Shown here: positions 26,503-36,428 of the stretch, piece by piece | How the letters are laid out: the number at the start of each line of letters is the position of its first letter | Position numbering within the stretch: the first letter of the stretch is position 1 | Sequence record: NC_054911.1 | Direction: 5' to 3' (one strand) | DNA: 64,000 bases | Origin: Escherichia phage ECO4 | The notes under the pieces: generated by a model | The model's input: only the letters and a program-made list of their open reading frames with translations | Databases searched by the model: none | Told to the model about the DNA's origin: nothing | Program-made: the position numbers and the translations under genes

Positions 26503-26556
26503 TCCTCATGTTATGTCAGTAAGACTACTATAACACAACACGAGGGACTTGTAAAC
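26503..26556 (-). promoter_or_regulatory. early-type promoter/leader cassette, copy 1 of an exact 54-bp repeat
   Basis: Minus strand GTTTACA - 17 nt - TATAGT with TGn, then leader ending in GAGGA RBS; identical to 41827..41880. Confidence 0.6.
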
Positions 26557-28613
26557 TACATTTTGAACTTTTTAGACATTCCGTTGATGTTAACCAAAGA
26601 AGCTAAGATTTGAGAAACTTCGTTTTCCTCTTCTTTTGATTCTTCTACAAGGAATTGATTAAATCCAGCCATTGGACGAACTTCACCAGTTTCCATTAGA
26701 TGGTCGCCATCATATACTGATTCTTCTAATTGTTCAGAAGGAGGAACGATTGTACCTTCGATTAGATACTTGTTATAAGCAGTTTCTTTCATAAAGTAAG
26801 TACTTACTTTATTAATCTTCAGTAAAATTCCACGTGGTAGAATAACTTCAGCTTCTGATGGAAATCCTGACAAATGACCTGGAACGATAACTTTAACTCG
26901 TTCAGCTCCTTTAATTACCATACCCACGCTAGTTTCAGCATCTTCATTAGCATATGTAGAATGACTACCCATATGCATCAAATCTTCTGCATCAACGGAA
27001 CCTTCTCCTTCACCAGAAAATACTGCTCCGGAATCATCTAAGGCCATATAATTTTTACCATACTCACCAAAGATATTTGGTTTAAGTGATGTAGATACGA
27101 AGTTCTTGAAATAGAACATTTTATTTTCAATGTTATGACGCAAAGTTTTAAAAGTAACTTCTTGTCCACGGTAAAGTGTAGTTCCTGGAGGAAGAACTGA
27201 ACCTTTAGCAAACGCAGAATCCATAGTCTCGATGTGCTTAATAGCGCGCTCCATGTATTCTTCACGTGTAGAATCAGGTTTACCTAAAAGGAATGAGTTC
27301 ATTTCAACATACGAATCTGCACAATAATCTTCAATTACATCAGATTCAGCCTGAGTCAATCCTTTTGGAGTTACTTCAGTGCTTGCATATTCATACGCCT
27401 GAGCAGCGGATTCATCAATTAATTTATAAATGCCATTCATGACAAATTGAATAATAGCTGTCTTTTCATCTGGCGTAGCTTTAGAACCTTTAACTAAATC
27501 ATTGACAATTTTCTTAATAACATCAAAGCTATTAGAAATATTAATGTCAGCAAGATCGCTTAAAATTTTATCAGTTTTATAATCAAAAAATTCTTTATTC
27601 TTTAAATATTCTTGAGAACTTTGATATGTTATATCGCTCTGCAACTTGATAGATGGATCACGTAAACGTGCATGGGCTAATGCAATATGATTTCGGAAGC
27701 TTTCTAGTTCATAATCACTAGATTTAAAACGAGAAGCACTCCTCATACCACCGATAGCTCCTTTGCCGAAGTTTGAACCAATCTGAATAACGCCAGAGTT
27801 CATTGGTCCTTCTGCTTTATATACCGGAACTTTAGATTCAAACTCTTGATATTTCTTAGCAGCAAAGCTATCACCCTGAAGTGAAGCATCAACAGTAGAA
27901 TATTGAGCTTGTGCTGCTAATCGACGACTAATTTTAGTTTTCTGAATAACAGCTTGATCCGTACGCTTATCATTTTCTAAAGCAATAGAAGCAGCAACTG
28001 CGACAGCTTTAGGAACAGCATTACCTGTTTTAACGTCTACATAAACATCACCGACTTTCGATTCAACTTTTGTGAATAACTCAGTTGAAATAGGAGGTAC
28101 ACCTGGAATGTCTTCTAAATTGGCATTTTTACGGTAAACCATAATATATGCATATTTCTTATCATAGTCCCAGATTTCCTTTAAAAGAACATATCGACCT
28201 GCTCCTTTAGTACGTACTAAACGGTCAGCAATAACTTGCATTTGACGAGCAGCGCCATTTGTTTTACTTTTTAGTACGCGGAATAGGCATGCATCAATTT
28301 TATACTGTTTCATTGTTTGAAGAGCAGTATCAAAAACCGCATTAATGACACCAATTGGATTTCCACCCAAATTTTTAAGCTTAACTAACGATAATTTCTC
28401 ATTAACACCTATCATTACGATATGCATCATTTTGTCGCCTGGCTTAACGTTTTTATTCGTATCACCGCCAGAGGTGTATGTACAAAATCGAAATCCAGGA
28501 AGAACGCTTTCTTCACCGGCTTGAATAGCAAAAATTTGAGGTATTTTATGCTTAGGATTTAAGTTAACAACCGGCGCCGAAGCGCCGTCAAATAATTCTG
28601 TAATAAGTTCCAT
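26556..28613 (-). CDS. Alt-family mono-ADP-ribosyltransferase, paralog A
   Basis: 685 aa; shared N-terminal region MELITELFD...; R-S-E type motifs (YRGQ, FVSTSL, EAEVILPRG). Confidence 0.85.
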   Translation of the reverse strand: MELITELFDGASAPVVNLNPKHKIPQIFAIQAGEESVLPGFRFCTYTSGGDTNKNVKPGDKMMHIVMIGVNEKLSLVKLKNLGGNPIGVINAVFDTALQTMKQYKIDACLFRVLKSKTNGAARQMQVIADRLVRTKGAGRYVLLKEIWDYDKKYAYIMVYRKNANLEDIPGVPPISTELFTKVESKVGDVYVDVKTGNAVPKAVAVAASIALENDKRTDQAVIQKTKISRRLAAQAQYSTVDASLQGDSFAAKKYQEFESKVPVYKAEGPMNSGVIQIGSNFGKGAIGGMRSASRFKSSDYELESFRNHIALAHARLRDPSIKLQSDITYQSSQEYLKNKEFFDYKTDKILSDLADINISNSFDVIKKIVNDLVKGSKATPDEKTAIIQFVMNGIYKLIDESAAQAYEYASTEVTPKGLTQAESDVIEDYCADSYVEMNSFLLGKPDSTREEYMERAIKHIETMDSAFAKGSVLPPGTTLYRGQEVTFKTLRHNIENKMFYFKNFVSTSLKPNIFGEYGKNYMALDDSGAVFSGEGEGSVDAEDLMHMGSHSTYANEDAETSVGMVIKGAERVKVIVPGHLSGFPSEAEVILPRGILLKINKVSTYFMKETAYNKYLIEGTIVPPSEQLEESVYDGDHLMETGEVRPMAGFNQFLVEESKEEENEVSQILASLVNINGMSKKFKM

Positions 28614-28616
28614 GAT

Positions 28617-30713
28617 TTATCCTTGAACGAACTTGTAAGGCATGTTTGTAATATCTATGCAAGACGCAATAATTCCAAGAGATGATTCTACTTTCTGTTT
28701 AACATTTGATGAAACAAATGATGCAAAGTCAACTCTATCTTCTATTTCAATATCACCTGTCATTGCAACTACTTCACCGGTTTCCATTAAATGGTCTCCG
28801 TCATAGATTACCGATTCGGTGAGCTCTTCCGTGGTCATAACTTCAGCTTGAATGAGTTTTGTATTATTAGATGTTGTTCCGTCATTATTAGAAGCATCAG
28901 TTATTTTATTAACTTTGACCATCAATCCACGCGGTAGAATAACTTCAGCTTCTGTTGCTATTCCGAGACTTCCTGGATATACAACATTAACTTTATGAGC
29001 TCCATCAATTGCCCATCCTATTTGAACTTTAACGTATTCAGGATTTTCTTTATACGCTCTTATTTCGTTTGGATTAATAGTTATTCCTTCTTCATTTTTA
29101 TCAACTGTTAATTCATTGCGAGCTTCTGGTTCTAAAAGACCAATACCAGCATGTGTGATTCCAAAACGTCCAAAAATGATAGGAGTTAAAGAAGTAGATA
29201 CAAAATTTCTGAAGTAGAACACTTTATTTTTAACTAACGCTTCATATATAGGAGCAGTCATACTTTGAGCACGATAAACTGTAATGCCTTCTGGTATACG
29301 GTCACCATTTTCAAAAGCTGAATCTAAGTTATTTATAGCAGATTCAATTTCTTTTTCACTCATTACATCATATCGTTCTGGATTGTAACGACCTAAAAGA
29401 AGATTATTGATGTCAGTATATCCTGAACCGCAATATTCTCTAATGCCACGCTTTTGTGATGGAGTATATTTAGAACCATCGCGGGCAATAGTAATATCAA
29501 TCATTGGACCAGCACCAATTCCAGAAAAACTGTAAATCATTCGTTTGAGGAATTTAGTTTTTGCTGCGTTCCAGGAATTTTTAGTTATTTCTTCCCAGAC
29601 TTCATCTGGTTGTCCTTTACGATTTTTATTATGATTAGCAAGCCATTTATCTTTATAATCTTCAAAGAATTGATTTACAGCTGCTGCGTATTTCTCTAAA
29701 CATTTTATTGAAGTAGTTGGTTCATTTTTAATTGCATTAAAAATTACTTCTTTAATTTTTTCTGAAACTTCACCGACTTGACTCATTGGAAAGAATTTAT
29801 AATCATAGTGAAGTTCATCTGCCGTTCCTTCAGCAATAATTTTTGCTGCCTTTGTTTTAGAAGCTAATGAATTAATTCCAATTTTCATTTCTTCTGCTTC
29901 GGGAATTAAAGGTGCAGTAGCTGGTTTATTAAAATTAGCTGCTGTAGATTCATACTTCTGGAATAATTCACTTTCAAATCTAGAAGATTCCAATGACTGA
30001 CTTTGTGCAATTGCTCTACGGGAAATTTTAACTTTAACGATTACGGCTTGGTCAGAACGTTTATCATTTTCTTGTGCAATAGATGCAGCAATTGCCTCAT
30101 TTTTGGTTACTTGAGCTCCAGTATCTTTATTGATATAAACATCACCGACCTTCGATTCAACTTTAGTAAAAAGCTCGGTGCTAATTTCTGGAACTCCTGG
30201 AATGTCTTCTAGTGATACATTTTTACGATGTATAAGAATATATGCATACTTTTTATCGTAATCCCAGAGTTCCTTAAGAAGGACGTATCTGCCACCTGAA
30301 CGACTGCGGATGAGTCTATCAGCAATAAGTTGAATTTGTCGAGCTTGACCGGCGGTTTTAGACTTAAGAATACGAAGCATGCAGGCATCAATTTTATATT
30401 GACGCATTGTTTGCATTGCAACAGTAAAAACTGAATTGATATAATTAATCGGGCTTGGACCAAGACCTTTTAATTTAGCAATTGAACCTTTAGCAGTTAA
30501 TGTAAAAGGAACAATGTGCATCATTTTATCGCCCATCTTTAAATCACGATTAGTATCACCTCCAGATGTATAGGTACATAAACGAAAGCCTGGTTGTTCA
30601 ATTGCATCATCAACATGAACTGAAAAAATTTGTGGTATTTTCTTCTTTGGATTTAAGTTTGTAATCGGAAGAGTAGTATCTTCGTCAAATAATTCTGTAA
30701 TGAGTTCCATCAT
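28617..30713 (-). CDS. alt: Alt-family mono-ADP-ribosyltransferase, paralog B
   Basis: 698 aa; same N-terminal and catalytic motifs (YRAQ, FVSTSL, EAEVILPRG), diverged middle; which copy is the alt ortholog is not resolved. Confidence 0.85.
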   Translation of the reverse strand: MMELITELFDEDTTLPITNLNPKKKIPQIFSVHVDDAIEQPGFRLCTYTSGGDTNRDLKMGDKMMHIVPFTLTAKGSIAKLKGLGPSPINYINSVFTVAMQTMRQYKIDACMLRILKSKTAGQARQIQLIADRLIRSRSGGRYVLLKELWDYDKKYAYILIHRKNVSLEDIPGVPEISTELFTKVESKVGDVYINKDTGAQVTKNEAIAASIAQENDKRSDQAVIVKVKISRRAIAQSQSLESSRFESELFQKYESTAANFNKPATAPLIPEAEEMKIGINSLASKTKAAKIIAEGTADELHYDYKFFPMSQVGEVSEKIKEVIFNAIKNEPTTSIKCLEKYAAAVNQFFEDYKDKWLANHNKNRKGQPDEVWEEITKNSWNAAKTKFLKRMIYSFSGIGAGPMIDITIARDGSKYTPSQKRGIREYCGSGYTDINNLLLGRYNPERYDVMSEKEIESAINNLDSAFENGDRIPEGITVYRAQSMTAPIYEALVKNKVFYFRNFVSTSLTPIIFGRFGITHAGIGLLEPEARNELTVDKNEEGITINPNEIRAYKENPEYVKVQIGWAIDGAHKVNVVYPGSLGIATEAEVILPRGLMVKVNKITDASNNDGTTSNNTKLIQAEVMTTEELTESVIYDGDHLMETGEVVAMTGDIEIEDRVDFASFVSSNVKQKVESSLGIIASCIDITNMPYKFVQG

Positions 30714-30733: not shown

Positions 30734-30741
30734 TATTTATA
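30734..30741 (-). promoter_or_regulatory. late promoter TATAAATA upstream of Alt paralog B
   Basis: Exact TATAAATA on minus strand about 20 nt upstream of the ATG at 30713. Confidence 0.55.
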
Positions 30742-32411: not shown

Positions 32412-32677
32412 TGTTCATCCTTTAGAGTTTGGTTTACAGCTCTATTATAAATCAATTCATCATTAAGCTCAGGCAAAGACTTATGATATGTAGTTCTAAC
32501 TTTATTTCCTTGCATCCAGTGCTTAACGTAAATGAAACCTTGCTCTACACATTTTTTAAAAATTCGTTCGTCTTTTTGAGCTCGGAATTCTGGATTACAT
32601 CTAAAAAATTGATTTACGTGACCGTAATCACGTGTAGTATTACCTTCATTTTCATAAATAGTGTGAATAACAAACAT
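32408..32677 (-). CDS. hypothetical protein (30.1 position)
   Basis: 89-aa ORF overlapping neighbours by 1..4 nt. Confidence 0.55.
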   Translation of the reverse strand: MFVIHTIYENEGNTTRDYGHVNQFFRCNPEFRAQKDERIFKKCVEQGFIYVKHWMQGNKVRTTYHKSLPELNDELIYNRAVNQTLKDEQ

Positions 32678-33513
32678 TAGAATGCTCCTTGGAAAATATT
32701 ATCACCACTAATAGGTCTATTATACAAATACTCTATGCCACCAGGTTTAATATAGTTCCATGTCTGAAACGGATGTGTCTGATATGGATGATATAGATTA
32801 TAAGGATTAAATCCAGGCGTTCTCCAGGTAGTGTTCCAAGGAAAAGAATCGTTTTTAACCATCTTCTCAATTAAATCTTTTATAGCTTTTTCACTATCAA
32901 AACTTTCTTTATTTTCCTTCGGCGAAAAAAGCTTATTTTCTACATCATTCCATGTATAAACTCGCTGCGCAGTTTTTGGAATATTGTCACGCTCTCCTCG
33001 AGCCATCCAATAAACCGGAACATTTAATATTTCACTCGCGTGGTCGCAGTGGTGAGCAAGATCGTCAATATAACAAATTACGTTATATTTCTCTTTTGCC
33101 TTTTTGAACAACTCTTCTTTTGAAGAATCATGACCACACATCATTACTTCTGAGAAGGCACCAGGAAAAAGAGCATTCAAATTAAATTGACGATTCAGCA
33201 GAGCGTCAATAGAATCACCCAATGCTGTAACAGCTACAAAATTATAATCTTCTTTTAATTTGTTAATTACACACAGGGCATCTTTATATGGAGACAAGTA
33301 ACGAATAAAATCTGATCGATTGTATTTTTCAATTAGCTTGACACCAAGTTCTTCATCACAATTAAAGAGTTTACCTGGAGAAATAAATTTCTCATCTTGG
33401 ATCATTTTTAAAATATGTTCTAACGGAAGATTATATTTCTGAGCAAAATAAGGAAGACCTGATTGCCAGCTTAAACATACTCCATCAATATCAGTTAAAA
33501 TAGTAGGCTTCAT
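32677..33513 (-). CDS. HAD-superfamily hydrolase-like protein (30.2 position)
   Basis: 278 aa; N-terminal DIDGV motif typical of HAD phosphatases/nucleotidases. Confidence 0.6.
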   Translation of the reverse strand: MKPTILTDIDGVCLSWQSGLPYFAQKYNLPLEHILKMIQDEKFISPGKLFNCDEELGVKLIEKYNRSDFIRYLSPYKDALCVINKLKEDYNFVAVTALGDSIDALLNRQFNLNALFPGAFSEVMMCGHDSSKEELFKKAKEKYNVICYIDDLAHHCDHASEILNVPVYWMARGERDNIPKTAQRVYTWNDVENKLFSPKENKESFDSEKAIKDLIEKMVKNDSFPWNTTWRTPGFNPYNLYHPYQTHPFQTWNYIKPGGIEYLYNRPISGDNIFQGAF

Positions 33514-33974
33514 AGAGAGTCTCTTAATAGGTTTAACACATCAATAAATTCAGCTTCGGTTAGTATTGTATCATCTTTTGTTAGACCACTAGCCATGCTA
33601 TGCTTCAAAACTTTTCCTTTCGAGGCTAGTAATGCATCACGAAAGCCCTTGTTTTGAATCGCCGCTTCAAAATATGCATTTGTGTACAACTCTTTCCACG
33701 CTGGTGAGTATCTTGAAAACGGAACTCCAAGCCAGAAGAGGGTCCCACGGTCCTGAGCTCTAGCATAAGACCTTCCAGCTTGTTGGGCGGCAAGCCCGGA
33801 TAACCCAAATACACGACGTTGCTGTTCAACATTTTTCACCTTACATCCTTGGAGAAATCCTTCAAGACCTCCAAATTGGATACCATCCATAACAAAAGGC
33901 CATTGGGCGAAATTACTTAATGCACACGATGGCCATCTAAAATTACTTCTAATCTCTAACTCAGGCATTTTCAA
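33510..33974 (-). CDS. NADAR/YbiA-like (DUF1768) protein
   Basis: 154 aa; ALSNFAQWPFVMDGIQF...EGFLQGCK aligns with the YbiA signature FSNF..WP...DG....EH.FQA.K. Confidence 0.6.
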   Translation of the reverse strand: MKMPELEIRSNFRWPSCALSNFAQWPFVMDGIQFGGLEGFLQGCKVKNVEQQRRVFGLSGLAAQQAGRSYARAQDRGTLFWLGVPFSRYSPAWKELYTNAYFEAAIQNKGFRDALLASKGKVLKHSMASGLTKDDTILTEAEFIDVLNLLRDSL

Positions 33975-35122: not shown

Positions 35123-35455
35123 TTATTTTACTACTTTCCAGTGCTTCATGTCAAGTTTACCAACTTTTTTCATCTTCTCAATCAAACGTTCGGCACGTTG
35201 GCGAGCTGTAACATAATACCATTCGCCTAATTCATTTTGTTCAATTTTTCCAACGATTACTGTATTCAATTCATAAATCCAACCAGTAAAGAAATTATGA
35301 ACTTGAATTGTAAAGGTGAAATCTGTTCCCATACCTTCTGTTGTTTCTACTTCAATAATATCACCTTCAACTGCCATTAAGAACCACATAGTTTCATCAT
35401 ATTTACCATTGAAGCATTTAGTTTTAACTGCAGCGTTCAGATTAATCGTTTTCAT
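35123..35455 (-). CDS. hypothetical protein
   Basis: 110-aa ORF with AAGGAGA RBS. Confidence 0.55.
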   Translation of the reverse strand: MKTINLNAAVKTKCFNGKYDETMWFLMAVEGDIIEVETTEGMGTDFTFTIQVHNFFTGWIYELNTVIVGKIEQNELGEWYYVTARQRAERLIEKMKKVGKLDMKHWKVVK

Positions 35456-35512: not shown

Positions 35513-35542
35513 AACTTTGTGCAATCTTTGGAAAATAAAAAA

Positions 35543-35562
35543 AGGACTCCCGAAGGAGTCCT
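35543..35562 (-). terminator. rho-independent terminator
   Basis: 8-bp stem AGGACTCC/GGAGTCCT with CGAA loop, followed on minus strand by TTTTTTTTATTTTC. Confidence 0.8.
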
Positions 35563-35566
35563 CAAC

Positions 35567-36419: not shown

Positions 36420-36427
36420 TTATTTAT
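36420..36427 (-). promoter_or_regulatory. late promoter TATAAATA upstream of rIII
   Basis: Exact TATAAATA on minus strand in the 31-rIII intergenic region. Confidence 0.5.
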
Positions 36428-36428
36428 A

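Follow-up and report, generated by a model that had tools for sequence, protein, structure and literature searches.

The function of gene 30.3 of phage T4 was established in 2024-2025 by biochemical and genetic studies. Resistance of the T-even phages to DarTG1 was mapped to this gene, which was renamed adfN, for anti-DarT factor NADAR (Johannesman et al., Nat Commun 2025, PMC11825919). As reported there, T4 and T2 without adfN form no plaques on DarTG1 hosts, RB69 is rescued by ectopic adfN, and the gene is both necessary and sufficient for the T-even phages to resist DarTG1. Necessity is also supported by the HIDEN-SEQ preprint, where a transposon screen of T4 found 30.3 to be conditionally essential on DarTG1 hosts and dispensable on E. 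coli K-12, a host that lacks DarTG. Purified AdfN removes ADP-ribose from DarT1-modified DNA, and the T4 mutants E36A, K43A and a C-terminal truncation are reported to have impaired or reduced activity; the natural sensitivity of RB69 is attributed to a frameshift that deletes the last helix of gp30.3 (PMC11825919). In vitro, T4 gp30.3 is described as hydrolyzing guanine-ADPr and not thymine-ADPr (Cihlova et al., Toxins 2024, PMC11125620). The setting in which the protein acts is restricted: according to the same two reports, uninfected cells are not rescued from DarT1 toxicity by T4 gp30.3, which is effective during T-even infection only (PMC11825919, PMC11125620), and the non-T-even phages T5 and Bas25 are helped weakly by T4 AdfN (PMC11825919). 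The lack of rescue and the weak help to T5 and Bas25 have raised the suspicion of a further phage-specific (T-even) factor. Rescue of DarT toxicity by expression of the gene, which a first-pass annotation of the locus described below had put forward as a check, therefore fails for the T4 protein when no infection is under way.

AdfN has relatives in bacteria and eukaryotes. Among NADAR proteins the third catalytic residue, in the last strand, differs by clade: the YbiA clade has Glu, the DarG1/BC4488 clade Asp and the phage clade His, and His in place of Glu is a hallmark of phage NADARs (PMC11543638, PMC11125620). E. coli YbiA is a housekeeping N-glycosidase of a LexA-controlled operon (in part PMC11125620), and DarG1 proteins are NADAR antitoxins. 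T4 has in addition Tk.4, or AdfM, which counters DarTG2 (HIDEN-SEQ preprint). AdfM and AdfN follow a common strategy, in that each is an orphan ADP-ribosylglycohydrolase that the phage carries and uses, in the manner of an antitoxin, against a DarT toxin, but AdfM has an unrelated macrodomain fold and targets the thymine-ADPr of DarT2.

The window analyzed here is a stretch of 64,000 nucleotides of Escherichia phage ECO4 (NC_054911.1). It is a segment of a Tequatrovirus genome (T4-like, RB51/wV7 type); the 3-kb stretch around 30.3 has 97-98% nucleotide identity to Tequatrovirus genomes such as those of Ptacy1496, wV7, RB51 and RB68. The gene order is that of T4 (virion genes, alt, 30, 30.1 to 30.9, rIII, 31, cd and pseT), down to the local order 30.4-30.3-30.2-30.1-30-alt.1-alt. 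Tk.4 lies outside the window. The coordinates of the features discussed below are collected in Table 1.

The first-pass annotation had described a minus-strand ORF at 33510-33974 that encodes a protein of 154 aa with ALSNFAQWPFVMDGIQF and EGFLQGCK. The ORF is real, and in the ORF listing it runs from 33974 to 33510 and carries both motifs. Its proposed start does not stand. The 154-aa reading opens at a TTG (33974), and an ATG lies two codons downstream, at 33968, which gives 152 aa; the T4 reference annotation has gene 30.3 as 459 nt from the equivalent ATG. With this ATG the published catalytic residues land on E36 and K43, and the CDS is therefore placed at 33510-33968 (152 aa). Judged from the sequence, the ATG at 33968 is the likely start codon. 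It shares bases with the stop codon of 30.4 (ATGCCTGA), as does the start of 30.2 with the 30.3 stop (ATGA). The methods of Cihlova et al. (PMC11125620) give the T4 gp30.3 construct as 'residues 1-208', as against 152 aa for the T4 reference and window proteins; the longer numbering might stem from a tag or vector, or from another annotation. An alternate-frame ORF within the gene, corresponding to T4 30.3', is present at 33626-33832 (-). It has 68 aa against 75 aa in T4, as it stops seven codons sooner, and its identity to T4 is 90%, against 97% for the main frame. The lower conservation suggests that 30.3' is not under selection of its own, and it was set aside as incidental, being less conserved than the main frame and shorter than in T4.

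Table 1. Features of the 30.3 locus, in window coordinates.
Feature	Position	Strand	Evidence
Gene 30.3 / adfN, CDS of 152 aa plus stop	33510..33968	(-)	ORF listing; T4 annotation; 148/152 identity; PF08010 3.7e-70
Codon GAA, E36, catalytic glutamate of the EGFLQ motif	33861..33863	(-)	Sequence; relatives; YbiA alignment; T4 E36A impaired (PMC11825919)
Codon AAG, K43, phosphate-binding lysine	33840..33842	(-)	Sequence; relatives; K43A impaired (PMC11825919)
Codon CAT, H123, histidine of the phage clade where YbiA-type proteins have the family-defining Glu and DarG1-type proteins Asp	33600..33602	(-)	Relatives; hhalign register
C-terminal alpha-helix, residues 138-151, intact	33516..33557	(-)	Predicted model; alignment with RB69
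Gene 30.2, HAD-fold hydrolase immediately downstream of 30.3	32677..33513	(-)	Context only
Candidate early promoter, sigma-70-like TTGACA-18-TAAAAT, upstream of 30.7 to 30.1 (cluster that includes 30.3)	35125..35154	(-)	Consensus scan

The window protein is identical to T4 gp30.3 at 148 of 152 residues (97%). The four differences are conservative substitutions (S2P, I53V, Q114L and I125M), and none falls at E36, K43 or H123. The protein matches Pfam PF08010 (Phage_30_3) over the whole profile (positions 1-138 of 138; E 3.7e-70; 234.6 bits, with a gathering threshold of 36 bits) and PHROG 652 with E 2.2e-51. Homologues were found by tblastn in 1,509 phage records; an ORF with homologues in more than 1,500 phage records is far beyond chance.

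Assignment to the NADAR superfamily required profile and fold methods. The window protein by itself gives no direct match to PF08719 (NADAR) in a Pfam scan even at E<=10, no NADAR match in an NCBIfam search at E<=1, and none when PDB sequences are searched by phmmer. When the 69 members of the family alignment were each scanned singly against PF08719, 26 matched directly, the best with E 1.5e-7. The top PDB sequence match of the family profile is E. coli YbiA (E 0.011, across the SNFA...EGF motif), and alignment of the two by hhalign has a probability of 93.3% and E 2.7e-7. AlphaFold2, run on the alignment, gave a model of high confidence (pLDDT 94.5, pTM 0.89), with YbiA as its second-closest structural match. 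The missing direct match to PF08719 is thus due to divergence, not to absent homology, and the placing of gp30.3 in the NADAR superfamily, with a YbiA-like fold, is supported. A search against NADAR/DUF1768 profiles, as the first-pass annotation had proposed, is negative for the single protein and positive at the level of the relatives and of the alignment to YbiA. The earlier description as an N-glycosidase of NADAR/YbiA type is supported by profile and fold, and agrees with the de-ADP-ribosylation of guanine-ADPr DNA (guanine-N2-ADP-ribose) reported for the T4 orthologue (PMC11125620, PMC11825919).

The conserved catalytic residues, whose absence would have spoken against that description, are present in the alignment. 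E36 is invariant in the 69 relatives, and K43 is kept in at least 90% of them, with Arg in RB49 and Lazarus. Both align to the SEHYFQAQK motif of YbiA, and the NADAR helix motif E-x-(F/Y)-x-Q-x-x-K is found in the protein. H123 is likewise invariant in the 69 relatives and stands opposite YbiA E125 by the extended hhalign register. The protein is full length and ends ...EAEFIDVLNLLRDSL, as in T4; the alignment shows RB69 gp30.3 stopping after TILT, without the helix. The identity, fold, active-site residues and intact C-terminus of the window protein are established, and within the NADAR superfamily it belongs to the Phage_30_3/AdfN clade.

Its closest described counterpart is T4 gp30.3/AdfN, an orthologue that has the same length, the same flanking genes 30.4 and 30.2, the same three active-site residues and the same C-terminal helix. 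The two phages differ near the locus in that the window phage has a second full-length alt paralogue, of which T4 has only remnants. The DarG1 NADAR antitoxins (E. coli C7; Geobacter lovleyi, PDB 8bat) differ from it in several respects. The phage gene is an orphan, without an adjacent DarT: 30.3 lies between 30.4 and 30.2, an adjacent DarT1 toxin is absent, and the only nearby ADP-ribosyltransferases (ARTs) are of the Alt type, PF03496. The N-terminal extension of the DarG1 type is also absent, since the conserved core motif starts at residue 13 of 152, and the NADAR of G. lovleyi has 219 residues; the literature on AdfN describes it as lacking the N-terminal extension of the antitoxins. The catalytic Asp of DarG1 corresponds to His in the phage protein. 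AdfN works similarly to DarG1, yet the T4 protein gives no antitoxin activity in uninfected cells. E. coli YbiA (PDB 2b3w, PF08719 NADAR/DUF1768) has the fold and motif in common with gp30.3 at about 20% identity, with YbiA E125 replaced by H123. The NADAR of Phytophthora nicotianae (PDB 8bau, in complex with ADP-ribose) is eukaryotic and 18% identical, is enlarged by N-terminal and inserted elements, and carries Glu in the last strand where the phage protein has His.

Because the protein is full length and none of its four substitutions relative to T4 touches a catalytic position, the best explanation of the gene is that it encodes an orphan eraser of DarT1 marks. It very probably is the T-even NADAR enzyme gp30.3/AdfN, an antitoxin-like DNA ADP-ribosylglycohydrolase that acts against the guanine-ADPr marks of DarT1. 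Both the activity of the enzyme and the phenotype against DarTG1 are carried over from the 97% identical T4 protein, and we infer that the window allele would act as T4 AdfN does. On infection of a cell with DarTG1, DarT1 would ADP-ribosylate guanine bases of the phage DNA and so block its replication. AdfN, produced early in infection, would hydrolyze the N-glycosidic bond between ribose and guanine through the E36/K43/H123 site of its YbiA-type fold. ADP-ribose would thereby be released, and the phage DNA would again be replicable. Reversal of ADP-ribosylation as a defense against DarT-type toxins, which had been proposed as plausible for this locus, is borne out by the T4 orthologue, which PMC11825919 reports to be necessary and sufficient against DarTG1. 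The finding is hence already known from T4, and the identification is correct.

The neighborhood of the gene had also been read as functional evidence, through a HAD-like hydrolase next to 30.3 and two Alt-family ARTs about 3 kb away. Both observations are accurate; the functional link drawn from them is not upheld. The sample for synteny comprised seven annotated divergent phages and 80 IMG/VR loci, 67 of these divergent. In the close relatives from IMG/VR with enough flanking sequence, 30.2, ligase and alt are all retained. Within 8 kb of 30.3 in the divergent loci, a 30.2 homologue is found in 6 of 67, a ligase in 7 and an Alt in 2. Clustering of the neighboring ORFs around 30.3 yielded no conserved partner family. 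In RB49 the ligase gene abuts 30.3, with neither 30.2 nor alt nearby; in a Ralstonia phage of the Ackermannviridae 30.3 lies among tRNA genes, and in a KVP40-like Vibrio phage it adjoins the gp46/47 nuclease genes. No Alt is found near 30.3 in RB49, Matisse, RSP15, D484 or 50AhydR13PP. That few divergent loci keep 30.2 or Alt indicates that the arrangement reflects the gene order of the T-even phages, not a functional cluster that is conserved, so that proximity to Alt adds little. The neighborhood was rejected as functional evidence on this ground. This lack of conserved synteny argues against a role of gp30.2, with its 5'(3')-deoxyribonucleotidase-like fold and disordered tail, in a DNA de-ADP-ribosylation or clean-up module with AdfN, and equally against AdfN policing nucleic-acid ADP-ribosylation by the two Alt paralogues; that either of these readings is right is improbable.

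The neighbor gp30.2 is, on the evidence of its predicted structure, a genuine HAD-fold protein. Its gene (32677-33513) starts MKPTILTDIDGV, and the product is 97% identical to T4 gp30.2. No family match was found in Pfam or NCBIfam. The AlphaFold model of residues 1-195 has a pLDDT above 90, and a Foldseek search with it returned 128 PDB matches at E<=1e-3; among the matches listed, all are HAD-superfamily enzymes or HAD-derived engineered proteins, and the highest target-normalized TM-scores among the leading matches belong to 5'(3')-deoxyribonucleotidase-like proteins. The Rossmannoid fold is accompanied by motif I DxD (D8, D10), motif II S/T (T96), motif III K (K132) and motif IV DD (D150, D151); all of these residues are invariant but T96, which is kept in at least 90% of relatives. 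The C-terminal region of about 80 residues, with an abundance of P, N, Y and W, is predicted to be disordered; at about 200-220 aa, many homologues have no such tail.

A two-enzyme module, in which gp30.3 acts with the translationally coupled hydrolase gp30.2 and the latter is the T-even factor that potentiates AdfN, would account for several observations. In every close T-even relative whose flanking sequence is long enough, 30.3 and 30.2 overlap in an ATGA, 30.2 is adjacent or near-adjacent to 30.3 also in phages of Providencia, Acinetobacter and Klebsiella, and the set of HAD catalytic motifs in gp30.2 is complete. Moreover, AdfN is reported to need a T-even factor, and 30.2 is present in RB69, where ectopic AdfN is fully effective. 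We consider the module very unlikely nonetheless. A 30.2 homologue is missing within 8 kb from 61 of the 67 divergent loci, and no other family takes its place as a conserved neighbor. In the text on the transposon screen of T4 on DarTG1, 30.3 is the only gene named, AdfN purified by itself is active in vitro, and the guanine-ADPr reaction offers no obvious phosphate for a hydrolase to remove. As the T-even factor, gp30.2 is thus a weak candidate.

The two Alt-type ARTs (PF03496) lie on the same strand as 30.3, at 26556-28613 (-) and 28617-30713 (-), about 2.8 kb from it. Both paralogues are full length and arranged in tandem, and both retain the motifs YR-x-Q, FVSTSL and E-x-E-VILPRG. The upstream copy (698 aa) shows 71% identity to T4 Alt, unevenly spread: the protein is a mosaic, with nearly identical ends and a divergent central and catalytic part. 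The downstream copy (685 aa) has 41% identity to T4 Alt, and 95-98% to the short T4 ORFs alt.-1 and alt.-2, which for this reason look like remnants of it.

The nearer of the two Alt copies, altA, has a late-promoter motif, TATAAATA, at 30734-30741 (-), 21 nt upstream of its start codon. The window has 19 copies of this motif, the T4 late-promoter consensus, where 9.1 would be expected; most of them stand ahead of virion genes. Upstream of 30.3 on the same strand, none occurs before the intergenic region of gene 31 and rIII (36421-36428). The nearest promoter-like site upstream of 30.3 on its strand is the sigma-70-type match of Table 1; as shuffled sequence contains at least as many sigma-70-like sites in total, the promoter scan is descriptive only and suggestive at most. 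Between 30.9 and 30.8, at 35542-35563 (-), GAGGACTCC-TTCG-GGAGTCCTT would form a strong hairpin that resembles a terminator, with a run of T after it. The hairpin and the near-consensus sigma-70 site just upstream of 30.7 may delimit an early transcription unit that includes 30.3.

These data bear on the proposal that gp30.3 erases the marks of the phage's own writers, the two Alt proteins or ModA/ModB, for example off-target modification of nucleic acid. Two intact ARTs at such a distance on the same strand count in its favor, and the restriction of the full AdfN effect to T-even infections is consistent with it. Alt, however, targets arginine in proteins, and it is found near 30.3 in just two of the divergent loci. 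A late-promoter motif stands ahead of altA, with none on the same strand from 30.3 up to 36421-36428, and retention of the gene is fully accounted for by the DarTG1 phenotype. The occurrence of NADARs together with ARTs among early genes of T4-like phages has been noted before and would favor such a role (Iyer et al. 2022, PMC9503650). The NADARs assayed in PMC11125620 and PMC11825919, however, cleaved guanine-ADPr and not thymine-ADPr, and the sections of these papers used here contain no assay on protein-linked ADP-ribose. An eraser of the phage's own marks is extremely unlikely as the role of gp30.3.

Equally unlikely is a scavenger of small molecules, acting on soluble N-ribosyl compounds (ADPr-derived immune signals or toxic intermediates of the riboflavin pathway) and not on DNA adducts, for although its structural match YbiA is an N-glycosidase acting on riboflavin intermediates, His replaces the Glu that defines the YbiA subfamily, biochemistry and genetics indicate directly that the substrate is guanine-ADPr in DNA and that the selective pressure comes from DarTG1, and 30.3 can be dispensed with on K-12. 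AdfN as an eraser of DarT1 marks may have further substrates, such as the products of other writers of guanine-ADPr or soluble ADPr derivatives.

The value of the identification lies mainly in annotation, as almost all homologue records among the matches listed carry the label 'hypothetical protein'. With a full-length 30.3 that retains E36, K43 and H123, the phage is predicted to be resistant to DarTG1-type defense, which is of relevance when phages are chosen by host range.
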